In this document: piece after piece, positions 8,365 to 64,000 of the stretch
Layout of the letters: every line of letters begins with the position of its first letter
How positions within the stretch are numbered: the stretch's first letter is position 1
Assembly (NCBI GenBank): GCA_002479255.1
Contig: DLMJ01000005.1
Location: 8,664-72,663 of the forward strand
DNA length: 64,000 nt
Direction: 5' to 3'
Origin: Candidatus Binatus soli
Lineage (GTDB): Bacteria > Desulfobacterota > Binatia > Binatales > Binataceae
Notes under the pieces: model-generated
Seen by the model: only the letters and a program-made list of their open reading frames with translations
Told to the model about the DNA's origin: nothing
Database searches by the model: none
Position numbers and translations under genes: made by a program

Positions 8365-8931
8365 TCAGTGATGACAGCCCACACAGTCGAGCGTCGCTTT
8401 TTTCTCCGTGTGACAGTCCACGCAGAAACCCATGTTGATTTCAAACGCCGGCGCCACGCGATCCATCGTTTCCACCGGGCCGTGACAACTCTGGCATCGC
8501 AGCCCGGCATGAATATGCGGCCGATGCGTGAAGCGCACAAAGTCGGGCAGCGTGTACACGCGATTCCACTGAATCTCGAACGCCGCCGGCGTGTCGTCCG
8601 TCCACGGCCGCGTCACCGGCTGGATTCCGCCTCCCGCAATCCTGTTGCCGTGGCATCCCACGCACTTGGCTACCGCCGGAATGCCCGGTTCAGACGATCG
8701 ACTTGCATAGGCATGGCAATACGAACAGGGAATCTTGTTCACCCCGGCGTGTACTCGATGGCTAAATGGTATCGGCTGAACTATGTCTGCCCGGGGCGCC
8801 CATGGCCGCTGCGACAGCGCGATCACTGCCCCGCCCAGCATCAGCATCGCCAGGGCAAGCGGCAGCACTATCCGATTCATGCTCACGATCAGGCTTGTGA
8901 ATAGTCCGAAAAAGCGCCGCCGCGCCACCAC
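8365..8931 (-). CDS. actA: Alternative Complex III pentaheme cytochrome c subunit ActA
   Basis: 188 aa. N-terminal membrane anchor/signal and five CxxCH motifs (CSYCH, CVGCH, CQSCH, CVDCH, CVGCHH). First gene of the minus-strand operon. Confidence 0.85.
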   Translation of the reverse strand: MVARRRFFGLFTSLIVSMNRIVLPLALAMLMLGGAVIALSQRPWAPRADIVQPIPFSHRVHAGVNKIPCSYCHAYASRSSEPGIPAVAKCVGCHGNRIAGGGIQPVTRPWTDDTPAAFEIQWNRVYTLPDFVRFTHRPHIHAGLRCQSCHGPVETMDRVAPAFEINMGFCVDCHTEKKATLDCVGCHH

Positions 8932-9135
8932 TCAACGGTTAAACTTTCTAACAACACGATCGTTTCCAATCAAGTAGGGTTAATTTTATACGCTGGATTG
9001 GATCGTTTAATAAAGGACGTACCTGTGGATTCCCATTGTGCGAGAACGCCGATTTATTGCGACAAGTAGTTTCGACAGCCCGCAAAGTATGTTACTTACG
9101 ACTAGGTTCTCGTGGTCTGAGGCTGTTTCGACAGG
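8932..9135. promoter_or_regulatory. Divergent lower-GC intergenic region between the ACIII operon and the aminotransferase gene, containing a direct repeat GTTTCGACAG (x2, ~56 bp apart)
   Basis: AT-enriched relative to flanks. Repeat read at ~9073 and ~9128; no promoter consensus was confidently identified. Confidence 0.3.
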
Positions 9136-10304
9136 TGCAAATCAAGACTGCTTCTCGACTGGGCCTTTTACCGCCCTACCTTTTTGCCGAGCTTGACCGC
9201 CTGAAGAAGGAGGTCGCAGGCAAGGGCGTTGACGTTATCAGCCTCTCGATCGGCGACCCCGACCTGCCCACGCCGCGTCACATCGTCGAGGCTCTCAAGC
9301 GCGCCGCCGACGATCCCAAAAATCACCGCTATCCCGACTACGAAGGCTTGCCGCAATTCCGCCGGGCCTCCGCGGATTGGTACCGGCGGCGTTTCGGCGT
9401 CAGCTTCGACCATCAGCGCGAGGTATGCGCTCTGATTGGCTCCAAGGAAGGCATCGCAAACTTCTCGACCGCCGTCGTCGATCCCGGCGACATCGTGCTG
9501 ATTCCCGACCCCGGATACCCGGTGTACTACTCGGGATGCGTCTTCAACGGGGGCGAGCCGTATTTTCTGCCGCTCAGAAAAGAAAACGGATTCGTTCCCG
9601 ATCTCGCCTCGATTCCCGCCGAGGTCTCGCGCCGCGCCCGGATGCTGTGGCTGAACTATCCGAACAATCCAACCGCCGCAACCGTTGACCTATCCTTTTT
9701 CGAAGATGCGGTCAAATTCTGCCTCAAGCACGGCATCATCCTCGCCCACGACAGCGCCTACTCCGAAATTGCCTACGACGGCTATCGAGCTCCGAGCGTT
9801 TTCCAGGCCCAAGGCTCGCGTGAATGTGCAATCGAGTTCCACTCGTTGTCGAAGACCTTTTCGATGACCGGATGGCGCGTCGGCTTCGCGATCGGCAACG
9901 CCCAGCTGATCGGCGCGCTCGGCAAGGTCAAGACCAACATGGATTCCGGCGTTTTCCAGGCGGTGCAGGAAGCCGCGATCGCGGGCCTGGAAGGCGCCGA
10001 CGGCGATAGGCTCGCCGAATATTGCGCAATCTACAGGGAACGCCGCGACCTGCTGGTCGGCTCGCTGCGCGCGCTCGGGCTGGAATGCGAGAAGCCGCGG
10101 GCGACCTTTTACGTCTGGACCAAAGTTCCGCGTGGTTACACCTCGGTTTCATTTACCGAGCGCGTATTGAAGGAAGCCGGCGTCGCAATTACGCCCGGCT
10201 CCGGATTCGGCAAGGGTGGCGAAGGGTACGTTCGCTTCTCGCTTACGGTGTCGAGCGAACGGTTGGCCGAGGCGGTGGACCGATTAAAAGCGCTGCGGTT
10301 TTAA
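9036..10304 (+). CDS. dapL: LL-diaminopimelate aminotransferase-like class I/II aminotransferase. Annotated ORF start is probably too far upstream; conserved sequence begins ~9136 (GTG)
   Basis: PLP-lysine motif SLSKTFSMTGWRVGFAIGN and N-terminal LLPPYLFAELDRLK, typical of the DapL family. Confidence 0.7.
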   Translation: MCENADLLRQVVSTARKVCYLRLGSRGLRLFRQVQIKTASRLGLLPPYLFAELDRLKKEVAGKGVDVISLSIGDPDLPTPRHIVEALKRAADDPKNHRYPDYEGLPQFRRASADWYRRRFGVSFDHQREVCALIGSKEGIANFSTAVVDPGDIVLIPDPGYPVYYSGCVFNGGEPYFLPLRKENGFVPDLASIPAEVSRRARMLWLNYPNNPTAATVDLSFFEDAVKFCLKHGIILAHDSAYSEIAYDGYRAPSVFQAQGSRECAIEFHSLSKTFSMTGWRVGFAIGNAQLIGALGKVKTNMDSGVFQAVQEAAIAGLEGADGDRLAEYCAIYRERRDLLVGSLRALGLECEKPRATFYVWTKVPRGYTSVSFTERVLKEAGVAITPGSGFGKGGEGYVRFSLTVSSERLAEAVDRLKALRF

Positions 10305-24158: not shown

Positions 24159-25322
24159 TTACTGATTGCTGAGGATAAGCGTCGCGCCCGAATGGCGCGT
24201 GCCGAGCGCGCCGCCGGTGCCGTGCGCGAGTGCGATTTCGCAATCCTTGACCTGCCGCGGACCGCATTCGCCGCGCAGTTGCTTGGCCGCCTCGATCACC
24301 AGGAAGATTCCGCGCATCCCCGGATGGTTCGACGACAACCCCCCGCCGTCGGTGTTGATCGGAAATTCGCCGTCGAAGCGCAGCCTTCCGCCCGACACGA
24401 ACGCGCCGCCTTCGCCGCGCTTGCAAAAGCCGAGATTCTCCAGCGTGGCCAGCACGGTGATCGTGAACGAGTCGTAGATCATCGCCATGTCGATGTCCTT
24501 GTGCGCGACGCCCGCGCGCTCGAACGCAAGCCGGCCCGATTGCGCCGCCGCGATTTCCAGAAAATCGCGCTGCCCGCGCGCCGCGTGCCGCACCGTCTCG
24601 CCCGCGCCAAGAATGTAAACCGGCTTCTTCTTCAAATCGCGCGTGCGCTCCGCCGACGTGATCACCAGCGCGCCGCCGCCGTCGCTGATGATGCAACAAT
24701 CCAGCAGATGCAGCGGCGACGAGATGATTCGCGACGCGAGTACGTCTTCCACCGTGATCGGGTCTCGGTACTTCGCGGCCGGATTCATGGACGCATGCAG
24801 CCGCGTCGTGACCGCTATTTCGGCCAGCTGCGCCGAGGTCGTCCCGTAGTCATGCATATGGCGCTGCGCGACCATCGCATACGCCCCGACGGTCGTCGGC
24901 CCGAACGGAATCTCGTACTGGTCGCACGGATCGCCTGCGCCGCCGCGTTCTCCGCCCGTGCCAATCGCAAACCGCGACGAGGCCGCCGTCGAGCCATAGA
25001 CCACCACGCATACGTCGCACAGCCCGGCGTGGATGGCGGCCGCCGCGTGCGCGGTGTGCGCCACGAACGACGACCCGCCGATCGAAGTCGAGTCGACAAA
25101 GTTCGGCGTCAGGTTCAGGTAATCGCAGAAGCCGACGATTCCCATCCCGCTCATCCCCATTCCGGTCGTGCACAGCCCGTTTACGTCCTTGATCGTCAAC
25201 CCGGCGTCGTCCAGCGCGCCACGCAGGCTCTCCGCCATTATCTGAAACAGACTTTTGTCCGGCGCGAAGCGGGTGGGATGCTCGAACACGCCGGCCACTG
25301 CGGTTTTGCGGCTTAAACTCAT
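24159..25322 (-). CDS. thiolase-like protein, SCP-x / Ltp2 / benzoylsuccinyl-CoA thiolase (BbsB)-type (lipid-transfer-protein thiolase)
   Basis: 387 aa thiolase fold with C-terminal GGGLSSNHPGMRG...AHGTGG motifs, lacking the classical catalytic Cys context of biosynthetic thiolases, and paired with DUF35. Confidence 0.75.
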   Translation of the reverse strand: MSLSRKTAVAGVFEHPTRFAPDKSLFQIMAESLRGALDDAGLTIKDVNGLCTTGMGMSGMGIVGFCDYLNLTPNFVDSTSIGGSSFVAHTAHAAAAIHAGLCDVCVVVYGSTAASSRFAIGTGGERGGAGDPCDQYEIPFGPTTVGAYAMVAQRHMHDYGTTSAQLAEIAVTTRLHASMNPAAKYRDPITVEDVLASRIISSPLHLLDCCIISDGGGALVITSAERTRDLKKKPVYILGAGETVRHAARGQRDFLEIAAAQSGRLAFERAGVAHKDIDMAMIYDSFTITVLATLENLGFCKRGEGGAFVSGGRLRFDGEFPINTDGGGLSSNHPGMRGIFLVIEAAKQLRGECGPRQVKDCEIALAHGTGGALGTRHSGATLILSNQ

Positions 25323-27150: not shown

Positions 27151-27384
27151 CTACTTTCGTGCCTTGCGGCCTTTGGGTTTGCGCGTGGGCGCGGATTTTT
27201 CGTCGATTGGATCGGCTTGCCCGTGCTCCCAGATTTCGATCGCCGCGCGGCTGAATCGCCACGCACTGCCTACGCGGAAGCCCGGTATTCGTCCTTCGTG
27301 CAGCAAGCGGTAAATCGTAGTTGGATGGACGCGAAGATGCGCCGACAACTCCGAGATGGTCAGAATATCTTTCGAGGATGCCAT
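27151..27384 (-). CDS. excisionase-family helix-turn-helix DNA-binding protein (HTH_17/MerR-like Xis type)
   Basis: MASSKDILTISELSAHLRVHPTTIYRLLHEGRIPGFRVGSAWRFSRAAIEIWEHG, a textbook Xis/AlpA-like HTH. Paralogous to the 53038 and 33127 genes. Confidence 0.7.
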   Translation of the reverse strand: MASSKDILTISELSAHLRVHPTTIYRLLHEGRIPGFRVGSAWRFSRAAIEIWEHGQADPIDEKSAPTRKPKGRKARK

Positions 27385-38394: not shown

Positions 38395-38748
38395 ATGCGT
38401 AAAGGCGCGATCATCGTTCTGCTCGGCGCGCTATGCTTCGCGGGCTACGTGTTCTTCGCCTTGGTCGGCGCGGAACCGGTCAAGGTGGCCGAAACTCGCC
38501 TGGTGCGAAGCGGCGGCCAGGTGTTGGTCGAAGGCGAGGTTCGCAATACAGGCGACGACACGGGCCCTCTCCAGGTCGAAGTCCATTATTTCGATCGCGA
38601 CGGCCACTCGATCGGCAAGGATATCGTTTCGGTGGATGGCCTCCGTCGCGGAGCTGCCGTGCGCTTCAAGAGTTCACCGCGTCCCGACGACGGCGTCGCC
38701 GATTTTTCCATTTATCTCAATCACGGGCGAAATCCCTACGGAAATTGA
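38395..38748 (+). CDS. small membrane-anchored hypothetical protein
   Basis: N-terminal TM helix (GAIIVLLGALCFAGYVFFALV) followed by ~90 aa of soluble sequence; no family recognised. Confidence 0.4.
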   Translation: MRKGAIIVLLGALCFAGYVFFALVGAEPVKVAETRLVRSGGQVLVEGEVRNTGDDTGPLQVEVHYFDRDGHSIGKDIVSVDGLRRGAAVRFKSSPRPDDGVADFSIYLNHGRNPYGN

Positions 38749-39028
38749 CAAGAATCGCCCGTGAAAACCATTAATAGTACTTATTCGCAAAATAAGTCCA
38801 TTTTCCAACGGATATTCCTAAGTTCGCGAAGTCTAAACAGTTTGTGAACGACGCTATTTGCAAACGTATGGCGCTGTTGAAGGTGTCCATACAAATCCAC
38901 CGGCAGTCTGTTTGTCTTTAAGTCGTTTTGATGGTACTAACTGTAAGTATCGAATATCACCTTTTTGATGAGGATGCGGTCAAATCACGGACCGCGCCAA
39001 ATCAGCACAAACAAGGGGAATCGGATCA

Positions 39029-39457
39029 ATGGTACGCATCAAGGAACGCAGTTTTGGACAGGTTATTCGTGAGCGCAGACGGCAACTCAACCTCACTCAA
39101 GAGGAAGTAGCCCTTCGCATCAAAATCTCCACGCCATACGTCGGCCACCTGGAATCAGGCAAACGCCATCCTTCCGATAAGATTGTATCGCGCCTGGCGG
39201 AAGTACTCGGACTCGGTCGCCGTGAACTGTTTTTTCTCGCCAATCCTCGCGCGCAGGCGCTGCTGAGTCCCGAGACCGAGTCCGAGGCCGATTCGGCCTG
39301 GGATGATTTCAAGAAGAACGAGCAACTGCGGCGCGTTCACAACATTGCGGGCGACGAGATGGAGGTTCTTTCGCGAGTGGCGTTACTCGGCGACGTGCGT
39401 TCGGCGCGCGACTTCATCTATATCCTGAACACCGTGCGCCACGCAGTCGGAAGATAG
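39029..39457 (+). CDS. XRE-family (Cro/C1-type) helix-turn-helix transcriptional regulator
   Basis: FGQVIRERRRQLNLTQEEVALRIKISTPYVGHLESGKRHPSDKIVSRLAEVLGL, canonical HTH_3. Preceded by a ~270-bp lower-GC region. Confidence 0.7.
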   Translation: MVRIKERSFGQVIRERRRQLNLTQEEVALRIKISTPYVGHLESGKRHPSDKIVSRLAEVLGLGRRELFFLANPRAQALLSPETESEADSAWDDFKKNEQLRRVHNIAGDEMEVLSRVALLGDVRSARDFIYILNTVRHAVGR

Positions 39458-52893: not shown

Positions 52894-53037
52894 AAAAACA
52901 GAGGCGGTCGATGACCGCCTCCGCTGCGAGCTGAATGTAGCGCGCGTCGATTGAAGCGCGACTCTGCGGCGACGGAGACTACTCCGCATTCGCGTCCGGG
53001 CTGCCGCCGGGCGCGCGCGACTCGATGATCTCGCGCG

Positions 53038-53262
53038 TCAGTTCTGGCTGGAGGTGCCGCCGTCCGGAGCCTTCATGTTTCGCTCCAGACACCAACGGTC
53101 GATCACCTCGGCGTTGAAACGCCAATCGGTGCCGATCCGAAAGCCCGGCAGCTCTCCGCGACGAAGCAGCTTGTAGATTGTCGATGGATGCACACGCAGA
53201 TATTCGGACAATTCCTTGACCGTCATCACGCGCGGCAGGTTATACTTGGTTTCATTAGCCAT
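53038..53262 (-). CDS. excisionase-family helix-turn-helix DNA-binding protein
   Basis: MANETKYNLPRVMTVKELSEYLRVHPSTIYKLLRRGELPGFRIGTDWRFNAEVIDRW, closely paralogous to the 27151-27384 product. The longer ORF to 53400 is probably over-extended. Confidence 0.7.
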   Translation of the reverse strand: MANETKYNLPRVMTVKELSEYLRVHPSTIYKLLRRGELPGFRIGTDWRFNAEVIDRWCLERNMKAPDGGTSSQN

Positions 53263-53547
53263 GATACTCCCCGGTAACGTCCCCGTCGGTCGCCTACTCC
53301 CTGGATTTGATGCCTTTTTTCGCATCTCGAATGATTCAATCCGCCCGTTACGCCCACCATGAGCCTGTATGAGAGTCTCAAAATAATCACTGGCGGTCAA
53401 GAGGTGCTTAAGGGGACTTCTGGTACTTTTCGCGTTTCTCTCCTTTATTGTATGTGAAGTCAGCTATTCTTGCAGAGATTTCGATAACAAAATGCTCAGC
53501 TAAGCTCTAAACGATGCCTGTGAGTGCCTTGAAATGAGGTCATAAGC

Positions 53548-54087
53548 ATGCCAAGTACGCGAATTTCAATTTTGCTAATCTTCGCCTGGCTTGGCCTTGC
53601 TCACGCCCAACCAGCCCAAGCCCAAATGAGGCTGACCAGCCCCGCGATCGCTCCCGGAGCCGCAATTGCCGATGACTACGCATGTACTGGCGCCGATCGA
53701 TCCCCCGCGCTCGCATGGAGCGATGCGCCGCAATCAACGAAAACGAAATCATTTGCATTGATCGTCGACGACCCCGACGCTCCCCATGGAACATTTTTTC
53801 ATTGGGTGGCGTACAATATTGCGGCTGGCGAAACTTCGCTGCCGGCAGGCGTGCCGCAAACCGCGGAAATTGCCGGCGGCGGAACAAATGGAATCAACAG
53901 CTTCGAGCATATCGGCTACAATGGACCGTGTCCGCCGCCGGGGAAAATGCATCACTATCGTTTTCATCTCTTCGCGCTGGATTCGACGTTGACTCCCGGC
54001 GACCCGGCGGACGCGGCCGCCGTCCAGTCCGCGATGAGAGGTCACGTCGTCGCGACCGCGGAATTGGTCGGCACATTCGAACGATGA
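53548..54087 (+). CDS. YbhB/YbcL family (PEBP/Raf-kinase-inhibitor-like) secreted protein
   Basis: Signal peptide plus conserved LIVDDPDAPHGTFFHWVAYNI and GYNGPCPPPGKMHHYRFHLFAL motifs. Confidence 0.75.
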   Translation: MPSTRISILLIFAWLGLAHAQPAQAQMRLTSPAIAPGAAIADDYACTGADRSPALAWSDAPQSTKTKSFALIVDDPDAPHGTFFHWVAYNIAAGETSLPAGVPQTAEIAGGGTNGINSFEHIGYNGPCPPPGKMHHYRFHLFALDSTLTPGDPADAAAVQSAMRGHVVATAELVGTFER

Positions 54088-54106
54088 GGTAAAAGCGGAT
54101 TCATCG

Positions 54107-54706
54107 ATGAAGACAGTACTCAAAATCCTGGCTGGAGTGATTGTTCTCGCAGTCGTCGCGATCGTGGGATGGCGTTACTATCAAATACATCGCGCGCGGC
54201 AGGCCGGCCTGCTCACCGAGAACATCGGGCATGACGGCAACGTCTGGAAGGCCGATTTCACCGCGCGCATCCCGGCCCCCGAGCAGACCGTCTTCACCGC
54301 GATTCGCGACGTCGAAAAAATGCACAACGATCAGGTCAAGGCGGTGCGCGTCGTATCCCAGAGCGGAAATAAAAAGACCGTCGATATGGATATCGCGGGA
54401 CCGGGCGGACAAACGATTACCACCGAGCTTGAGTTCGAGTACCTGCCCGACCAGAACAAGATCGCCTATCACACCGTCGACAATCCGCTGCTCGATACTC
54501 AGGCCGTGTACCAACTCGGCGATGAAGGCGCGAGCACGTTCATCGACTACCACGAAACCACGCATCTGCTGCAGTCGTTTCCCGTCCCCGACGGCGTCAT
54601 CAAGCAGGTCATTCGCGGCATCTTCATCGCGCAGCTCGAAACCTTGAAGCGCACCCTCAACATCAAGACCGCCGACGAGACCCCCTCCCGTGACGACGAA
54701 CCCTGA
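54107..54706 (+). CDS. membrane-anchored SRPBCC (START/polyketide-cyclase-like) superfamily protein
   Basis: N-terminal TM helix then ~170 aa with SRPBCC-like alternating pattern; assignment tentative. Confidence 0.45.
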   Translation: MKTVLKILAGVIVLAVVAIVGWRYYQIHRARQAGLLTENIGHDGNVWKADFTARIPAPEQTVFTAIRDVEKMHNDQVKAVRVVSQSGNKKTVDMDIAGPGGQTITTELEFEYLPDQNKIAYHTVDNPLLDTQAVYQLGDEGASTFIDYHETTHLLQSFPVPDGVIKQVIRGIFIAQLETLKRTLNIKTADETPSRDDEP

Positions 54707-54879
54707 CGGCGCCCGCCGTTTCCGCGCGAGCAGTACGATGAACGTAATGACTTGCCGCAGGCAGGCGGAAGGCGCGAAATTGATGACGATCAAAGATACA
54801 GCGCAAATCGAGTGGGACGAGATCCGTAAGATCGACCATTACGCGTTGTCGGTGAAGGATCTCGCAAAATAACACGAAG

Positions 54880-55797
54880 ATGCATTTTCCAGACAGCGTT
54901 GCGCGTGCACTCAAAAAGGCTCTCGTCAATGTATTCTGGACGAAGAAAGACCTTCGCGAATTGTTTAGCCGCTGCGATGTTCCAGCCAATCTGACAAACG
55001 CCCAAGATTGGAACGGATACAAGTTTCACATCATCGATCCCGTCATTGACTCCCTCAACGGATCACCGGACGGGCTTGGACCATTACGCCGAATCCTCGC
55101 CGAAACCCTTCACTACAAAGATGGCAATCACCTTCTGTGGCTCTCGGACGGCCAGAAGCGAAAACGAGAGGCGGAAGATTCGTTGGAGCATCTGAGGGTC
55201 TTGGTCGAAAAGCACGATGCGTCGCTGGAAGCGGAACGTACGAAGCAGGAACAGCGGCGTCGCGAGCAGGACGAGAGAGCTCGAAAGCAATCGTTCTCGG
55301 AGACGCGCGAACATCTAAAGCAGCATTTCTTAACCTTGTATGCCGCGCTCGACCGGCAGCAGAGCGGCTACGGATTAGAAGATCTCCTGTACCAAGTCTT
55401 CGATCTTTTCGAATTGCAGCCGCGCGGGCCATTTCGCCTTGCCGGAGAACAGATCGACGGCGCGTTCGTCCACGAGTCGACCGATTTTTTGCTTGAGGCG
55501 AAGTGGTAGAAGGCCCCTGCAAATCTGGAAGCGCTTCGCGATCTCGATGGCGCAGTCGGGTCAAACCTGGACAATACACTTGGGCTGTTCATTTCGATCC
55601 ATGGGTACACCGGGGAAGCACTCGATCGGTATCGGCAGGGAAATCGGCCGCGAATTGTCTGCATGGACGGCGCTGACCTGATGGCCGTCCTGGAGGGTCA
55701 GATTGATCTCAACGACCTCTTGCGCCGAAAGAAGGCGATCGCCGCGCAACGAGGCGAAGTATTTGCGCCCGTTTCCAAAATAATCCTAGGAGAGATG
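54880..55797 (+). pseudogene. Mrr-like PD-(D/E)xK restriction-endonuclease-domain protein with N-terminal coiled-coil/sensor region, interrupted by an in-frame TAG at 55507-55509
   Basis: Reading through the TAG gives ...GYGLEDLLYQVFDLFELQPRGPFRLAGEQIDGAFVHESTDFLLEAKW*KAPANLEALRDLDGAVGS...LGLFISIHGYTGEALD...RPRIVCMDGADLMAVLEG. This matches the Mrr_cat layout (G..E..v..Lf...G......GDgGIDg.......iQaKry....v...v..l.G........G.liTts.ft..A.......i.LiDG..L), with the stop directly after the E-x-K catalytic motif. Lower GC (~52%) than the flanks. Confidence 0.55.
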
Positions 55798-55800
55798 TAG

Positions 55801-56811
55801 ATGACCGCGGGGAAGATTGCATGTCCGCTCTGCGACTTGAGCCAACCGCTCGCTGCCAGCTCATCTGATCCCGATGGCGATCGCACGGCGGTTCGTTGTC
55901 GGCGATGCGGGGAGTTCTCAATTCCGTCCCGGATTCCTGAAAACTGGGATATAGGACGGATACCTCAGTTTCTGCTTGAGAAGAGAGTCAGACGCTCCGA
56001 TCAGCCGCGCGGCCGCGAGCTCCTACGGAAGTATCTGTCTATCTACAGCCGTGAATGCCAGGAAACCGGCAGGCGGGCTGAATTTCCAGTACCTTTCGAC
56101 CTTTCTGAGATGGAGCTGCTAGCCGAAACCTACGCGCATACGTCTGTTCCAGACCGTGCAGATAGGCTGCTTCGCTTTCTCGCGCGACGGACTGACTACC
56201 CCGGAAAACCCGTAGGGGTAAACGCGTACTACGATTATCCTGTGCCACATGCTATCGAGGCCGAGGAATTCGACTATTATCTGGAATACCTCGCTCACGC
56301 AGGTTGGATCGAACGACCAGCAGGTTTGGACGCAAAGATCTCCGGGCAGGATCCGGAGATAGAGTACGATCGCGAAACCATCGTCACGGTTGAGGGTTGG
56401 AAACGCATCGCTTCGCTCGGCGGCGGTCGTGTCGCTTTCGTCGCCATGTCATTCGCCACGGAACTGGACGACGCCTTTCTCGAAGGTCTCACTCCGGGCA
56501 TATGCGACGCTGGCTACCAGGCATTGCGGGTAGACAAGATCGAGCATAACGAGAAAATTTGCGACCGAATCGTCTCCGAGATTCGAAGAGCCAGGTTTCT
56601 TGTAGCCGACGTGACAAATCAGCGGCCAGGCGTTTATTTCGAGGCCGGATTTGCAATGGGATTGGGCATGCCGGTCATCTGGTGCTGCAGAAAGGACGAT
56701 CTCGCTAACGTCCATTTCGACACTCGGCAGTACAACCACATCGTCTGGGAAACGCCAGCGGAGCTGCGTACCAGACTTCGTGACAGGATTCTCGCCACGC
56801 TTGCGGCCTGA
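55801..56811 (+). CDS. hypothetical protein: N-terminal C4 zinc ribbon, central unknown domain, C-terminal nucleoside 2-deoxyribosyltransferase-like (NDT/Rcl/TIR-related Rossmannoid) domain
   Basis: CPLC...CRRC zinc ribbon. C-terminal RVAFVAMSF...ARFLVADVTNQRPGVYFEAGFAMGLGMPVIWCC follows the NDT-family pattern (strand, then sDlvvA..d......GtafElGyA.alGKPvi) including the catalytic-position Glu. Starts 4 bp after the Mrr-like ORF; low GC. Confidence 0.5.
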   Translation: MTAGKIACPLCDLSQPLAASSSDPDGDRTAVRCRRCGEFSIPSRIPENWDIGRIPQFLLEKRVRRSDQPRGRELLRKYLSIYSRECQETGRRAEFPVPFDLSEMELLAETYAHTSVPDRADRLLRFLARRTDYPGKPVGVNAYYDYPVPHAIEAEEFDYYLEYLAHAGWIERPAGLDAKISGQDPEIEYDRETIVTVEGWKRIASLGGGRVAFVAMSFATELDDAFLEGLTPGICDAGYQALRVDKIEHNEKICDRIVSEIRRARFLVADVTNQRPGVYFEAGFAMGLGMPVIWCCRKDDLANVHFDTRQYNHIVWETPAELRTRLRDRILATLAA

Positions 56812-57131
56812 ATGAATGGTATCCAAGGAATGCAAGACAGCTAGCAGAGATAAGGTCTCCAATTGCGTTGGTGAGCGTGCATTCGGCACTTGAAAAATCC
56901 GTCCGGCATGGGCATCCGAGCACGCTCCATCTCTGGTGCGCGCGACGGCCGCCAGGCCGCCCGCCGCGCAACGCTGCTGGCGCTGCTGCTCCCCGACCCG
57001 TGCGATGAGGACTGTCCGGAAGAGTTCAAGGACACAGTGAGGATCTGTGACCAAAGACGACGCGGTGCGTCAGCGTCGCCCGAGGTACCGACGAGTAGGA
57101 CCTGATTAGTCATGTTCAAGCGACCCATACC

Positions 57132-58427
57132 ATGATCCGCTTCAACGCAGAATTCGTAGCATCCGCGTTCGCTCTCGACGGATGCCCGCGATGGAAGCGC
57201 GCCGAGGTCGCGCTCGCCGGCCGCTCCAACGTGGGCAAGAGTTCCCTGCTCAACGCGCTCGCCGGAGTGAAGGGTCTCGCGCGGACCAGCAAAACCCCCG
57301 GACGCACGCGATGCCTCAACTTCTTCTCGGTCGGCGACACGCTCGCGCTATGCGACCTGCCCGGCTTCGGCTACGCGAAGATGGGTCATGAGGAAGCGGC
57401 CAAAATCGCTTTTATGATGCACGAATACATCCACGAGCGCGTCAATCTCGCCGCCATCGCGATTCTCGTCGATTGCCGCCGCGGTCCTCAGCACGACGAA
57501 CTCGATCTGGCGGCGATGGCCGCGGAGCGCGGCATCGAAGTAATTCCGGTCGCGACCAAGTGTGACAAGCTGCGCCGTTCGGAGCGCGCAGCCGCGCTCA
57601 AACGTTTCGACTCGATGCGCGTGGCGCCGATCTTCTGTTCGGCGACGTCCGGCGAGGGAATCGACGATCTGCGCCGCCGAATCCTTGCCGTCGATCGGAT
57701 GGATGCCGCTGAACCCGGGCCGCATAGCGAATCGAATTCTGCGACTTTCGACGAATGGCTGAAATGGGTTTTCGACCACCCGGTTGCAGAAAACACGTCG
57801 GACGAATGGTGGTGGCAGGAGCCTGACTACGATGAAGGCGGCAGGTGGTTGGACCGGCCGCCGATGCCGGCATTAGCGTTCGTTGCAAAACTCTTCGAGA
57901 ATCCGTTGCAGTACCTGTCTTGTTATAGCGACGCTCAGATCAATCAGGGTCTCGATTTCATTGTCAGTACATCCTGCTCTAAACATTTCCACTGGCTCAT
58001 AGACGGCAGAGTCGATCTTAATCTTCGAAAGCGTTGCATCCGATCAATTGAGGGTCTTTCCCGCGAGTTGTTCGCGCCGAGGTGTTCGGACGATGTCTGC
58101 AAAGGCACGAAGCCACTGGATTACATTTGCTTCATGCTCTGGGATCTTGCGATACACCATGCTTGTCACCGTGAGGATAATCCCGACGGTACTTACTCGG
58201 AGGTCCGCGATCCTGAAATCGACAAGGAATCCGTCAATACGCTCGCCCGCATAATCACAATACCAAGCCTCGCGTGTCAGCAATCGGCTCTGCATGGACT
58301 CGGCCACCTGGTTGACGACGCTTGTCTGGGAGCGAACATTATCCAGAAATATTTGGATGACCATCCAAACCTGCGTAGCGATATTCGGACATACGCGCAG
58401 CGGGCTCTGTTGGGCAAAGTACAGTAA
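57132..58427 (+). CDS. engB: ribosome-biogenesis GTPase EngB/YihA/YsxC fused to a ~230-aa Cys/His-rich C-terminal extension of unknown function
   Basis: N-terminal ~200 aa with GRSNVGKSSLLNAL (G1), KTPGRTR, DLPGFGYAK (G3), TKCDKL (G4), SA (G5). One continuous ORF continues for ~230 aa (…CYSD…CSKHFHW…CIRS…CSDDVC…HHACH…) with markedly lower GC (~52%) than the GTPase part (~66%). Confidence 0.7.
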   Translation: MIRFNAEFVASAFALDGCPRWKRAEVALAGRSNVGKSSLLNALAGVKGLARTSKTPGRTRCLNFFSVGDTLALCDLPGFGYAKMGHEEAAKIAFMMHEYIHERVNLAAIAILVDCRRGPQHDELDLAAMAAERGIEVIPVATKCDKLRRSERAAALKRFDSMRVAPIFCSATSGEGIDDLRRRILAVDRMDAAEPGPHSESNSATFDEWLKWVFDHPVAENTSDEWWWQEPDYDEGGRWLDRPPMPALAFVAKLFENPLQYLSCYSDAQINQGLDFIVSTSCSKHFHWLIDGRVDLNLRKRCIRSIEGLSRELFAPRCSDDVCKGTKPLDYICFMLWDLAIHHACHREDNPDGTYSEVRDPEIDKESVNTLARIITIPSLACQQSALHGLGHLVDDACLGANIIQKYLDDHPNLRSDIRTYAQRALLGKVQ

Positions 58428-58470
58428 GGCTGAAGACCCGAGGCGCTGCCGTCCGGGACGCTGCATCAGG

Positions 58471-59385
58471 ATGAGACCAGAAGTTTCGGTAATTATCCCG
58501 GCTTACAATCGATGCGCGATGCTGCTTGAGGCGATCGATTCCGTGCTCGCCCAATCGACCCCGGCGTTCGAGTTGATCGTCATCGACGACGGCTCGACCG
58601 ATGGGACCGCCGAGCACCTGGCGCGGCTGGCTGAAACGATCCGAATGAAAATTGACCGCATCGATCATCGCGGTCCGGCCGCGGCGCGAAACCGCGGCGT
58701 CGCCATCGCGCGCGCGCCGCTGATCGCATTCCTCGATTCCGACGATCTCTGGTCGCCGACCAAGCTCGAACGCCAGCTCGCGTTCATGCGCGACAACCCC
58801 GGCTGCGCGATCTCGCAAACCAACGAAATCTGGATCCGCAACGGGCGGCGCGTGAATCCCGGCCACCGCCATCGCAAGCGCGCCGGCGATATTTTCATCG
58901 ACTCGCTCCGCACCTGCCTGATTGCCATGTCGTCGGTGATGATACGCACCGATCTTTTCCGCTCATTTGGCGGCTTCGACGAGCTCATGACCGCCGCCGA
59001 AGACTACGATCTATGGCTGCGAATTCTCATCGACCATGAAGCCGGCCTGCTCGACGAACCGCTGGTGACGCGCCGCGGCGGGCATCCCGATCAAACCTCG
59101 GCCACGACTCCTGCCCTCGATCGCTTCCGCATTCTCGCGCTTGCAAAATTGCTCGCGGACGACCGGCTTTCCCCGGCGCGGCGAACTTCGGTGGTCGAAG
59201 TATTGGCCGAAAAATGCCGTATCTACGCGGGCGGCCTTCGGCGACGAGGCAGAATCGACGAGGCGCGACTGTACGAATCGGTCGCTGAACAGGCGCGAGG
59301 CTGGGATACGCGTGCGGCTCCTGAAATCGGATGCACGGTCAAGGCGATGCGATCCATGATTCGCGAAATTCCACATGAATGCTGA
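58471..59385 (+). CDS. family 2 glycosyltransferase
   Basis: VSVIIPAYNRCAMLLEAIDSVLAQS...IVIDDGSTDGT...AFLDSDDLW...AEDYDLWLR, canonical GT-A/GT2 motifs (DxD, ED). ATG at 58471. Confidence 0.8.
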   Translation: MRPEVSVIIPAYNRCAMLLEAIDSVLAQSTPAFELIVIDDGSTDGTAEHLARLAETIRMKIDRIDHRGPAAARNRGVAIARAPLIAFLDSDDLWSPTKLERQLAFMRDNPGCAISQTNEIWIRNGRRVNPGHRHRKRAGDIFIDSLRTCLIAMSSVMIRTDLFRSFGGFDELMTAAEDYDLWLRILIDHEAGLLDEPLVTRRGGHPDQTSATTPALDRFRILALAKLLADDRLSPARRTSVVEVLAEKCRIYAGGLRRRGRIDEARLYESVAEQARGWDTRAAPEIGCTVKAMRSMIREIPHEC

Positions 59386-59911
59386 CGAGATCGACGCGCA
59401 GATTCGGATGCTCGCTGCCGAGCGACGGCTGCCGCCGAGCCATCTTGCGCGATGGCTCGCGATGGACCCGGCGTCGCGTGCCGCGATGCTCGATATCGCG
59501 CGCGTCATCCGCCTGCGGACCGGTCAATTGATGACCGCACTGGAGACGCTTGAGGAAATCGCCGTGCGCGAGCACGTCACAGCCGCCGGCGTTCTCGGCC
59601 GCCCCGAAATCAGGCGCATTGCGGGCGGTCCCGGCTCCGCGCCGTCGCGCGCGAGCGCGCTGCTCGAAGCGCTTCGAACGCTTCGCTACCCCCTCCTTAA
59701 GAAAATGCAGGAGCAGATCCGCTCTGAAGTCTCGGCGCTGAAGCTCCCCCGCGGAATTTCGGTGGTCTTGCCCAAAGAGCTTGGCTCTGATGAGCTCACC
59801 GTTTCGCTTCGGGTGCGAAGCGCCGCCGAACTGGCGCGCCTGCTCGAGGCGCTGGATCGCTCGCGCACGGGACTGACAAGGATTATTGAAATGCTTGGCG
59901 GTAAAAGGTGA
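59375..59911 (+). CDS. hypothetical protein (178 aa)
   Basis: ORF overlapping the GT2 stop by 11 bp, Ala/Arg/Leu-rich helical sequence; no motif recognised. Real coding status uncertain. Confidence 0.35.
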   Translation: MNADEIDAQIRMLAAERRLPPSHLARWLAMDPASRAAMLDIARVIRLRTGQLMTALETLEEIAVREHVTAAGVLGRPEIRRIAGGPGSAPSRASALLEALRTLRYPLLKKMQEQIRSEVSALKLPRGISVVLPKELGSDELTVSLRVRSAAELARLLEALDRSRTGLTRIIEMLGGKR

Positions 59912-59921
59912 AAAGTGAAAA

Positions 59922-61022
59922 ATGAAATTTGACCTCGACGCCGTGCTTGTCGAGCACGGATGCGCCGGCTCTGCGCTGGCGACTCGCATCCTGCGCGCGC
60001 TCCCGCGCCATGTGCCCGTCACGCATGTCGCCGACAACGAAACGCGCGAGGCGACCAGGCCCGCATCCGGCGCGCGCGATCCGTTCGGGGCAGGCAAACG
60101 CCGGATGGTGATCGCGCGGCGCAAGACTCCGTTCCTGATGCCGTGTCACGCAGGCTCCTCCAGGTTCGCCTGCTGCGGATACCTCGTGCTCACGCTCGCA
60201 TCGAACTGCCCGATGGATTGCTCGTACTGCTTTCTGCAGGAATATCTGGCTGACAATCCCGCCTTCCAGGTATATGCGAATTTCACCGATTCATTCGACG
60301 AGCTCGACCGGCTCATCGACAACGCTCGCGGGCGCAGCTTCCGCGTCGGCACCGCTGAGCTGGCGGATTCGCTCGCGTTCGACTCGATTACCTCGATCAG
60401 CCGCGACCTGATCGATTTTTTTGCCTCGCGCGAGAATCTGACGCTCGAGCTCAAGACCAAAACCGACGAAATTGAAAATCTTCTTGGCCGGGACCCGCGC
60501 GGCCGCGTGCTCGTCTCGTGGACCTTGTCGCCGGCCGCCGTCTATCGAAGCTCGGAGCATCTCACCGCCTCGCCCACGGCGCGAATCGCGGCGGCGCGCG
60601 CCGTCCTCGACGCCGGCTACCGCGTGGCGTTCCATCTCGATCCGTTGATCGCATATCCCGGCGCCGAGCGCGATTACCTGCTGCTGATCGACGAGTTGCT
60701 GGACACTATCGCGCCCAAACAAATCTCGTTCATCAGCATGGGCGGTCTGCGGATGACGCCGCGGTTGCGCGGCGCCGCGCGCAGCCGTTTCCCCGGCGAT
60801 CCGATGCTATGCGGCGAGGACGTGCTCGCCGCTGACGGACGGTTTCGGACATTCACCCCGCTGCGCCTCAACCTCTACCGCACGCTTGCCGATCGCTTCC
60901 GAAAAGCGGGCGCGGAAATCCCCGCCTATCTGTGCATGGAAGCGGCCAGCGTCCATGAAAGCGTCTTTGGCGCGGCGCCCTCACGGCCGGCTATAATCGG
61001 CAACCGCCTCGCGCGCGACTGA
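59922..61022 (+). CDS. radical SAM protein of the spore-photoproduct-lyase (SplB)-like DNA repair family
   Basis: CPMDCSYCFLQ radical-SAM cluster motif in the SPL-like context (LTLASNC...YCFLQEYL), 366 aa. Confidence 0.65.
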   Translation: MKFDLDAVLVEHGCAGSALATRILRALPRHVPVTHVADNETREATRPASGARDPFGAGKRRMVIARRKTPFLMPCHAGSSRFACCGYLVLTLASNCPMDCSYCFLQEYLADNPAFQVYANFTDSFDELDRLIDNARGRSFRVGTAELADSLAFDSITSISRDLIDFFASRENLTLELKTKTDEIENLLGRDPRGRVLVSWTLSPAAVYRSSEHLTASPTARIAAARAVLDAGYRVAFHLDPLIAYPGAERDYLLLIDELLDTIAPKQISFISMGGLRMTPRLRGAARSRFPGDPMLCGEDVLAADGRFRTFTPLRLNLYRTLADRFRKAGAEIPAYLCMEAASVHESVFGAAPSRPAIIGNRLARD

Positions 61023-61054
61023 GCACGGGCCGCACACCCGCGGATTCAAAAATA

Positions 61055-61927
61055 ATGCCGACCCGTAAAAAATCTGCAACCCGGCCAAATTCGATCGCGC
61101 CTTCCAACGGACTTCTTCGCGGCTCGCGCGCGGCGATCGATCGGCCCATCGGCGTGTTCGATTCGGGAATCGGCGGACTCACCGTCCTGAAAGCGCTGAC
61201 CGCGGCTCTGCCCAATGAAGATTTCATCTACCTCGGCGACACTGCCCGGCTTCCCTACGGCACGAAATCCAACGAAGTCATCGTCCGCTACTCGAAGGAG
61301 AACACCGGCTTCCTGCTCGCCAAGGGAATCAAGATGCTGGTGGTCGCCTGCAACACGTCCAGCGCGGTCGCGCTCGACGCAATCGCGTCGGACACGATGA
61401 TCCCCGTGATCGGCGTGATCGAGCCGGGCGTGCGCGCCGCCGTCAAGGCTTCGCGCAACGGCAGAATAGGCGTGATCGGCACCGAAGCAACGATCGCGTC
61501 CGGCGCTTACACGCGCGCGATCCAGCGGCTAAGCCCGCGCTCCGAAATCTACACGCGCGCGTGCCCGCTGCTGGTGCCGCTGGCCGAGGAAGGATGGACC
61601 GACAATGCGGTCGCGGAATTGACCGTCGCCCACTACCTCGAGAGTCTCAAACAGAGCGGCATCGACACGCTGCTGCTGGGATGCACCCATTACCCGCTGC
61701 TGCGCGATATGTTCGCGCGAATTCTTGGGCCCCGCGTGAAGATCGTGGACTCCGCGACTGCGACCGCGGCCGACGTGCGCGACCGGCTGCGGATTCTCAA
61801 GCTCGCCCGGCGCACCGGCAAAGGGATTCAGAGTTTCTTCGTGACCGAGACCCCCGATCGTTTCGTCCGCGTCGGTCGCAGATTTCTCGGCCCGCAGGTC
61901 GAATCCGCCGTCCGAATCGAGCGCTAG
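61055..61927 (+). CDS. murI: glutamate racemase (ORF start probably over-extended; conserved core starts ~61145)
   Basis: IGVFDSGIGGLTVLKAL, YLGDTARLPYG, VVACNTSS, GCTHYPLL: canonical MurI motifs. Confidence 0.85.
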   Translation: MPTRKKSATRPNSIAPSNGLLRGSRAAIDRPIGVFDSGIGGLTVLKALTAALPNEDFIYLGDTARLPYGTKSNEVIVRYSKENTGFLLAKGIKMLVVACNTSSAVALDAIASDTMIPVIGVIEPGVRAAVKASRNGRIGVIGTEATIASGAYTRAIQRLSPRSEIYTRACPLLVPLAEEGWTDNAVAELTVAHYLESLKQSGIDTLLLGCTHYPLLRDMFARILGPRVKIVDSATATAADVRDRLRILKLARRTGKGIQSFFVTETPDRFVRVGRRFLGPQVESAVRIER

Positions 61928-62117
61928 TCCGCTCTCCTTACCCTGGTGCAGGGAATGACCCCCTGCCTACCGACCCGATTTCGGGATAAGATGATTTCCA
62001 GCTAAACTTGCGGAGTTGTTTCACTCTTTCACTGTGCCACCGGTCAGACCGCATCGCTCTGGCTCGTCGAGAACCTGATCTCAAAAAAACACTTGCCGCG
62101 AAAATCGCTCATATAAG

Positions 62118-64000
<1,883 letters not shown>

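Follow-up and report, generated by a model that had tools for sequence, protein, structure and literature searches.

A low-GC stretch of a Candidatus Binatus genome is very probably a composite of a genus-conserved block, a decayed Hma defence locus and an engB gene fusion

Hma is a defence system composed of HmaA, HmaB and HmaC (Payne et al., 2021, as cited in PMC11232893), and other defence genes can be inserted between the hma genes (PMC11232893). The same systems have been named DUF499-centred "type-1 BREX-related (BR)" systems, with auxiliary PD-(D/E)xK restriction endonuclease effectors (PMC12839542), and NDT domains have been proposed as abortive-infection (Abi)-type effectors (Anantharaman et al., 2013, PMC3710099). 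The present analysis concerns a low-GC stretch, positions 53263-58440, within 64,000 nt of Candidatus Binatus soli contig DLMJ01000005.1 (hereafter the window, to which all positions refer). The original prediction made of it a single horizontally acquired islet, bounded by an excisionase-family (Xis-like) helix-turn-helix (HTH) gene and ending inside engB. The stretch is instead very probably a composite of three unrelated neighbours: a block of genes found genus-wide, the relic of an Hma locus that retains an Mrr-like/NDT-like gene pair, and a fusion of engB with its downstream gene.

The case for a composite comes from synteny. Six species-level Candidatus Binatus genomes (L003, L006, L009, L011, L012, and L014) were compared with the window, using tblastn with 14 window proteins against the relatives' loci. 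These relatives share the order SDR, a variable segment, HTH_17 (minus strand), PEBP, SRPBCC, DUF309 or another gene, engB, ORF234, GT2, p178, SPL and MurI, and the GC content and third-codon-position GC (GC3) of the orthologues match the window values gene by gene (GC 0.56-0.58 for HTH_17 and, in five relatives, 0.44-0.48 for the HTH_17-PEBP spacer; GC3 0.53-0.64 for PEBP and 0.59-0.68 for ORF234). The Mrr-like and NDT-like genes were found by tblastn in none of the six, and when the window was searched by blastn against L003 (88-90% nucleotide identity) and L006 (~80%) only 54712-57130 was unmatched. HTH_17, the AT-rich spacer, PEBP and SRPBCC are a genus-conserved block whose atypical composition is old and stable, and only ~54745-57131 is specific to the species of the window. 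By synteny, the limits first drawn for the islet are wrong: most of its content stands in every relative at the same GC and GC3, including what had been taken for the C-terminal half of engB. Horizontal acquisition survives for the Mrr/NDT pair and its spacers, and the single insertion fails for the remainder of the interval.

A single acquired islet, mobilized with the aid of the Xis-like HTH protein and integrated either at the 3' end of engB or within it, would fit the lowest-GC 5.2-kb stretch of the window, four genes whose GC3 lies 4-5 standard deviations (SD) under background, and an HTH gene at one edge that matches the "excisionase family" model TIGR01764. Unlike an integrase-mobilized island with an Xis gene, however, the interval shows no integrase, tRNA or attachment-site repeats, as the original prediction had also observed. 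No integrase domain was present in the ten open reading frames (ORFs) scanned between 52114 and 59911, the only tRNA in the window is a tRNA-Gln at 24503-24591 (none lies nearer than 24.5 kb), Rfam gave nothing relevant, and direct and inverted repeats at 53270/58430 and at 54712/57130 were limited to short chance matches. Every gene save the Mrr/NDT segment is syntenic in the six relatives, the HTH gene being the most conserved of the region (93-97% amino acid identity and the same position in 6/6), and in L003, L006 and L014 the engB extension exists as a conserved gene of its own. Synteny has already refuted the single islet, which keeps a barely perceptible probability.

The species-specific segment is collinear with the central part of Hma loci from other metagenomes (L098 and L181), and Hma proteins of L089 and L091 served as further references. 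L098 contains a complete five-gene locus, hmaA, Mrr_cat (306 amino acids, aa), NDT-like (339 aa), hmaB and hmaC, adjoining Qat genes. PADLOC identifies HmaA (9e-171) and HmaB (2e-109) in L089 and HmaC (1.9e-92) in L098; hmaA encodes an SNF2 helicase of ~1130 aa that ends in a NOV_C/PD-(D/E)xK nuclease domain, hmaB a ~1000-aa DUF1156 N6-adenine methyltransferase and hmaC a DUF499 AAA+ ATPase. Window 54748-57030 aligns with L098 6948-9229 at 78.5% identity over 2289 bp, an alignment that takes in the end of hmaA, both accessory genes and the beginning of hmaB, and 54739-56836 aligns at 86.8% over 2099 bp with L181, in which the hmaA tail and hmaB start are intact. The collinearity with complete loci crosses gene boundaries, including the hmaA stop and the hmaB start. 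As in described Hma and type-1 BR systems, defence genes lie between hma genes and an auxiliary PD-(D/E)xK effector is among them; in contrast to those systems, none of the three defining genes is functional in the window.

What remains of hmaA is its last ~43 of ~1128 codons, the end of the NOV_C nuclease domain (54744-54872, plus strand). Residues 1085-1128 of L098 HmaA match 54738-54869 by tblastn (64% identity, E 1.8e-12; 2.4e-10 for L091 HmaA), and no other HmaA match occurs in the 64 kb. The left deletion junction lies in 54707-54743 (plus strand), which aligns with the SRPBCC-DUF309 spacer and the first two DUF309 codons (ATG AAC) of L006, L009, L011, L012 and L014. The spacer and "ACGATGAAC" are kept, and an ACG microhomology marks the change to hmaA sequence, at codon ~1087. 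The outcome is a chimeric 44-codon ORF (54738-54872) in which a DUF309 start is joined to the hmaA tail. On the other side, a 5' remnant of hmaB, the DUF1156 adenine methyltransferase gene, occupies 56816-57042 (plus strand) in three reading frames and ends near codon 75-83 of ~1003; residues 3-42 and 59-75/83 of L098 and L089 HmaB match 56823-57066 at 56-70% identity (E 7.6e-14 and 3.8e-15). The small Cys-rich ORF once proposed at 56890-57105 holds LLALLLPDPCDEDCPEEFK, the N-terminal motif of HmaB, and is a frameshifted fragment of hmaB. L098 HmaC had no tblastn match (E <= 0.01) anywhere in the window. With ~43 codons of hmaA, ~80 frameshifted codons of hmaB and no hmaC, the segment fails to qualify as an Hma system on all three genes. 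As read from the sequence, ~54745-57131 appears to be an internal fragment of a decayed Hma defence locus, acquired horizontally; that locus belonged to a five-gene subtype with two accessory effector genes between hmaA and hmaB.

How could such a fragment have come to lie upstream of engB? In four relatives DUF309 directly abuts engB. In L011 (MFD05580.bin.2.15), ~1.5 kb of other ORFs separate the two (5842-7412): these encode proteins of 216 aa and 173 aa, neither with a Pfam, NCBIfam or PADLOC match, and the shorter carries, by eye, an R-x4-H ("RDWIAHRN") HEPN-like motif. In L003, the closest relative, DUF309 is also missing, and SRPBCC and engB are separated by 551 bp of repeat-rich non-coding DNA (8854-9404) containing two copies of "GTCATTCT(A)GAGCG..AGCGAAGAATCCCG" and short hairpins, which look like small elements of the miniature inverted-repeat transposable or repetitive extragenic palindromic (MITE/REP) type. 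Neither that gap nor the insert in the window contains remnants of DUF309 beyond the start-codon region. Because its content differs between L011, L003 and the relatives with DUF309 only, the interval directly preceding engB is a site of variable cargo.

An insertion followed by two deletions and frameshifts makes the most economical history. An Hma locus would most likely have been inserted into the DUF309-engB gap. One deletion then fused DUF309 codon 2 with hmaA codon ~1087, as the alignment shows, and a second would have removed hmaC and hmaB past codon ~80, leaving the observed truncation and a right junction somewhere within the unassigned 89 bp (57043-57131) that separate the hmaB remnant from the start of engB. 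The frameshifts visible in the hmaB stub would then have gathered while both accessory genes survived, apparently under purifying selection. Comparison with a second, 99.6%-identical strain shows that one C-to-T change in this strain finally replaced Gln210 of the nuclease by an amber stop.

The accessory gene affected is a 306-codon Mrr-type PD-(D/E)xK nuclease gene at 54880-55800 (plus strand), a pseudogene in this strain. An in-frame TAG at 55507-55509 directly follows the D...EAK motif, placing a stop at codon 210, inside the catalytic domain. The Mrr-like identification was sound, its homologues being of the Mrr_cat type, but the stop had been overlooked and the product is a nonsense-truncated 209 aa. 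Intact homologues (from L089 and L181, and P0185) have Q at this position (EAKWQK). They contain a complete Mrr_cat domain, which the window copy lacks; the 320-aa L089 homologue, for example, scores 24.5 bits against PF04471 (gathering score 21) over residues 203-283. In common with Mrr/Mrr_cat restriction endonucleases, the intact homologues exceed this gathering score and carry the D...EAK motif. The family differs from them in having a distinct N-terminal domain, with a sub-threshold resemblance to EAD1 (E 0.003-0.014), and behind it a charged stretch some ~50 residues long (aa ~91-137, as read from the sequence), and the window copy differs further by its amber truncation.

Once Q is restored, the window translation matches the database protein P0185 at 100% identity. 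This protein comes from L182, a conspecific strain with the same locus at 99.6% identity over 16.9 kb. Within the relic the two strains differ only at 55353 and 55507, the latter being C (CAG) in L182 and T in the window. Since L182 shares the truncated hmaA and hmaB borders yet keeps CAG, the nonsense mutation is a recent polymorphism, later than the loss of the Hma core. The stop is common: the nuclease is knocked out in 24/24 contigs examined with the EngB of the window and in 24/24 with its SRPBCC, each of these proteins occurs in ~200 blocks of the assembly collection, and the intact allele was seen on 2 contigs only. An assembly error was considered and rejected, as the same 209-aa product occurs on independent contigs from several samples and the CAG allele in a separate strain. 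The ratio of nonsynonymous to synonymous substitution rates (dN/dS) between the window and L181 is 0.055 for the nuclease, with no excess of window-specific substitutions.

The second accessory gene is intact (55801-56811, plus strand) and encodes 336 aa with a four-Cys zinc ribbon, a helical middle and a C-terminal NDT/TIR-like (flavodoxin-fold N-glycosidase-like) domain. It scores 27.6 bits against PF05014 (E 3.5e-6), just under the gathering score of 28.8, although the domain is listed for many homologues, and matches the PADLOC "Effector TIR" profile at 9.4e-10. Invariant in 43 homologues are C8/C11/C33/C36, D255, D270 and E281. The AlphaFold2 model has a mean predicted local distance difference test (pLDDT) score of 86, and Foldseek relates it weakly (E ~1e-3) to the SPARTA TIR, DNPH1, NDT and BcmB (a CMP N-glycosidase), with template modelling (TM) scores of 0.6-0.7 over ~130 residues to the last three. 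dN/dS against L181 is 0.089, again with no excess of window-specific substitutions. By analogy with Abi-type architectures that join a sensor N-terminus to an NDT/TIR effector (PMC3710099), it would cleave the N-glycosidic bond of a nucleotide, of NAD+ or of DNA when triggered, and it may still act as a stand-alone effector of the abortive-infection type, with a sensor N-terminus and an N-glycosidase C-terminus. It resembles the proposed Abi-type effectors (PMC3710099) in placing an NDT/TIR-like domain behind a zinc ribbon and helical domain, in the conserved acidic residue of a "YFEAGFA" motif and in its defence-locus contexts. Unlike them, its N-terminal domain matches none of the named Abi N-terminal domains, and it is known from sequence and a model.

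This family is large, with more than 3800 matches, and the notion that it always belongs to Hma was rejected. Within the nearest subclade (>=49% identity) the gene is flanked without exception by hmaA and hmaB. Across 80 metagenome NDT-like loci, 4 carry hma genes; among loci with at least 1.5 kb of flank, hmaA lies upstream in 3/35 and hmaB downstream in 3/37. Two further accessory pairs may be of a different make-up: P0190/P0089 (12,970-bp contig) and P0191/P0087 (12,232 bp) have nucleases 85-89% identical to that of the window and apparent NDT-like partners only 49-50% identical, the pairing being judged solely from equal contig sizes. If it is true, the two accessory genes have been shuffled independently.

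Several points weigh against this composite and its Hma history. No intact Hma locus was found at this site in any Binatus genome examined, the decay is deduced rather than seen, and an already truncated fragment could have been imported. The stretch that should hold the right junction, 57043-57131, has no significant similarity to the compared loci. P0186, a nuclease 95% identical to that of the window, is paired with an NDT-like gene and follows SnoaL/ACAD-like genes at a locus where no full hmaA was called, and more distant NDT-like members (<=42% identity) do not adjoin Hma genes; the pair may travel or persist without Hma too. The NDT-like activity is itself a prediction, the Pfam score being just under threshold and the fold matches weak, and an ancient transfer could also fit the atypical GC3 seen in PEBP and ORF234.

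Two alternatives draw on these points. In the first, Hma was never complete in this lineage, and a pre-truncated fragment or accessory cassette entered the DUF309-engB gap by illegitimate or homologous recombination. The empty record in the relatives and the P0186 pair would both fit, and a left junction with only 3 nt of microhomology suits a deletion and an illegitimate insertion alike. Strict collinearity with complete Hma loci, down to the hmaA stop and the hmaB start, is harder to reconcile with import, a simple deletion explains the loss of the DUF309 body, and decay in place is argued for because the hmaB stub carries several frameshifts, which imply time at the site. Import of a fragment is accordingly judged unlikely, and decay of an Hma locus in place is preferred.

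The second alternative concerns the pair itself. It could be an autonomous two-gene defence or toxin module, kept by selection without the Hma core, in which case the amber allele would be a strain-level loss or a phase-like polymorphism. Such autonomy is possible because a 95%-identical pair occurs without a called hmaA and distant NDT-like members lie outside Hma loci; the low dN/dS of both genes, with no excess of lineage-specific changes, also fits, as does the fully intact pair in L182 beside truncated hmaA and hmaB. However, the nuclease is knocked out in every contig examined by way of EngB or SRPBCC, the closest NDT-like subclade is always found between hmaA and hmaB, and the low dN/dS may largely date from before the truncation. 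Nor does any PADLOC system model cover the pair, which gave a generic TIR-effector match and a weak PDC-S02 match only. An autonomous module is possible, though clearly the less favored account beside that of two accessory genes of an Hma locus.

At 56.7% GC (0.567), against a window mean of 60.9% (0.609), 53263-58440 ranks first of 589 same-size sliding windows for low GC, ~3 SD under the mean, and its tetranucleotide distance is the most deviant (z = 2.9; reached by 0/242 background windows). The drop in GC first described is real, but its size, from ~66% to ~50-58%, was exaggerated: the dip is ~4 points, the flanking genes lie at 0.62-0.65, and only the 285-bp spacer (0.474, as the AT-rich leader had been described) and the C-terminal part of engB (0.52) come near 50%. 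Against a GC3 background of 0.776 +/- 0.035 (35 genes), PEBP (0.60, -5.0 SD), Mrr-like (0.63, -4.3 SD), NDT-like (0.61, -4.9 SD) and the ORF234 part (0.59, -5.3 SD) are low outliers, and SRPBCC and the engB core (both 0.77, -0.2 SD) are native-like, the latter in agreement with the original prediction. The interval is outlying by GC, by tetranucleotides and by the GC3 of four genes, and is heterogeneous from gene to gene.

Could such a dip arise with no horizontal transfer, from variance in codon usage between genes together with an AT-rich promoter region? Other parts of the window are almost as low (27-30 kb, 0.56-0.58; 38-39 kb, 0.53), and the low GC of PEBP and ORF234 is stable throughout the genus. 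Against this, the Mrr/NDT segment is foreign, being missing in the relatives and 78-87% identical to Hma loci elsewhere, and ORF234 has a patchy, multi-phylum distribution and adjoins engB in Binatus only. For 54745-57042 this explanation is refuted, and for the stretch as a whole it is quite improbable beside a composite that includes an acquired Hma relic. The lowest-GC 500-bp window of the entire sequence (0.474) begins at 38751, in a low patch at 38501-39250.

The third component of the composite is engB itself. Its GTPase core (57132-57697, plus strand) makes up the first ~189 of 431 codons, and residues 6-184 score 183.5 bits against the TIGR03598 equivalog (cutoff 124.45). In position and sequence it is a typical EngB/YsxC/YihA GTPase, conserved in the relatives at 81-89% amino acid identity, but with 431 aa in place of ~200. 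Residues ~206-431 are homologous to standalone proteins of 224-234 aa. In L003, L006 and L014, engB encodes the expected 199 aa and its TGA overlaps the ATG of a separate ORF234 (ATGA). In the window, L009 and L011 this overlap has been rewritten with the same net loss of 5 nt, which yields fusions of 418-431 aa; in the window the junction is a rewritten linker, in one frame, at 57698-57746 (plus strand). In L012 another deletion, of 11 nt, created the fusion, and ORF234 there retains its own N-terminal TPEV. Because the two deletions differ, at least two independent fusion events have taken place. The ORF of 431 aa joins a normal 199-aa engB, in frame, to the conserved downstream ORF234, and the insertion once suspected near the engB 3' end resolves into a small deletion that fused two neighbors, with nothing inserted. 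The exact 431-aa protein is listed in 202 blocks of the assembly collection and contigs L001 and L002 are identical to the window, which therefore stems from a common uncultured organism and is no artefact of assembly.

The ORF234 moiety (57747-58427, plus strand), a separate gene of 224-234 aa in some relatives, is an all-alpha solenoid with the motif SALHGLGH. All 64 homologues of this half of EngB are standalone proteins of 167-313 aa (mostly 190-240), and those with a named source are from Candidatus Binatus. In a wider search, 294 genome matches are scattered sporadically over many phyla. The gene is under purifying selection (dN/dS 0.12-0.25), diverges ~2x faster than the flanking genes at nonsynonymous and synonymous sites alike, and which relative matches it best changes along its length. 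Its AlphaFold2 model is helical (pLDDT 88), Foldseek returned generic ARM/HEAT solenoids only (E >= 0.01, high root-mean-square deviation), and Pfam, NCBIfam and PADLOC give no family assignment. Clustering of neighbors at 74 loci from other phyla revealed no conserved partner, and the ATGA coupling with repeated fusion to engB is the only functional hint for this protein. At L024 8001-9338, L042 8001-10397, L087 8001-9328 and comparable loci, the family forms tandem paralogues in some Dongiaceae and other genomes, and in several Verrucomicrobia it lies beside xerC/topA/dprA-like genes.

The genus-conserved block begins with the HTH_17 gene (53038-53262, minus strand; 74 aa), which matches PF12728 at 1.2e-15 and TIGR01764 with 55 bits (cutoff 28.8). 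It has the HTH_17/excise domain of an excisionase, but is present in all relatives and does not come and go with an integrative element. From sequence and position, it behaves as a conserved chromosomal gene of the core regulator type, probably set beside its target promoter, rather than as an island excisionase. A PADLOC "mad1" match was rejected as a sign of a MAD1 defence gene, since the protein is below the NCBIfam MAD1 cutoff and is a core gene. A paralogue with 54% identity lies at 27229-27366 (minus strand), in the lower-GC patch at 27-30 kb.

Between HTH_17 and PEBP is a divergent, AT-rich intergenic region of 285 bp (53263-53547), conserved in the genus with a mean column identity of 82% over six species. 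It contains long invariant blocks such as GTCTCAAAAT and GGTCAAG and an invariant palindrome, GATGC-N8-GCATC. A structured RNA was rejected: the RNAalifold covariation term was positive (penalizing), almost no compensatory pairs were present, and Rfam gave no match. As RNA covariation was not found, the blocks presumably serve the HTH_17 protein as operator or promoter sites, and the spacer, a probable promoter/operator region, is more likely a promoter or a binding region for a regulatory protein than a structured RNA. The PEBP/YbhB-family gene (53548-54087, plus strand; PF01161 2.5e-39, TIGR00481 112 bits) has an N-terminal signal-peptide-like segment and, at dN/dS 0.23-0.32, is conserved in the genus despite its low GC3. 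The SRPBCC (Polyketide_cyc2) gene (54107-54706, plus strand; PF10604 2.3e-6) encodes an N-terminal hydrophobic helix and is 81-88% identical in amino acids in the relatives. Profile matches uphold the assignments first given to HTH_17, PEBP, SRPBCC, the NDT-like protein and the EngB GTPase.

Two observations touch the edges of this block. Between the window and L182 (46879-63800), single-nucleotide differences number 6-14 per kb left of ~54430 and 0-0.9 per kb from ~54430 to 63800, a contrast which suggests that a recent recombination event or sweep has its boundary within or beside SRPBCC. A second variable hotspot lies between the SDR gene and the 3' end of HTH_17 (52894-53037), where ~145-150 bp in the window compare with 1-5.3 kb in relatives (L003 6203-7185, L006 2226-7358, L009 1483-5371, and L012 2176-5367). 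The cargo in L006 comprises HigB/HTH toxin-antitoxin genes, DUF1330, two luciferase-like monooxygenases and TetR, and in L003 two small ORFs.

The low-GC stretch is a composite of ordinary processes: stable genus genes of atypical composition, a defence relic in a cargo hotspot, and a fusion by small deletion. The suspicion that the Mrr/NDT pair was foreign was right. In annotation terms, both the "Cys-rich ORF" and the 44-codon ORF are debris of pseudogenes, the Mrr-like product of 209 aa is a nuclease cut short by a nonsense codon, EngB owes its 431 aa to the fusion of two genes and not to an island in engB, and the Xis-like gene is of the core regulator type and not a mobility gene. An Hma subtype with an NDT-like accessory gene is a small lead: no description of it was found in PMC11232893 or PMC12839542, and "deoxyribosyltransferase", "NDT" and "TIR" have no occurrences in the main text of the latter. 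It is doubtful, though worth stating, that two bolder claims hold: that the accessory pair is an autonomous, unnamed two-gene anti-phage (abortive-infection) module which normally serves Hma loci as a backup effector layer and can stay functional as an orphan once the core is gone, and that the SALHGLGH family is a functional partner of EngB. If this is true, the coupling of ORF234 and its at least two fusions would mark the family as a partner of an essential ribosome-assembly GTPase. In Candidatus Binatus the DNA directly preceding engB is a hotspot for defence genes, and Hma appears to have decayed there in steps: two deletions were followed by frameshifts and, last, by a nonsense mutation that is still polymorphic in the population. 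The recurrent EngB-ORF234 fusions hint at a function for an uncharacterized multi-phylum family.

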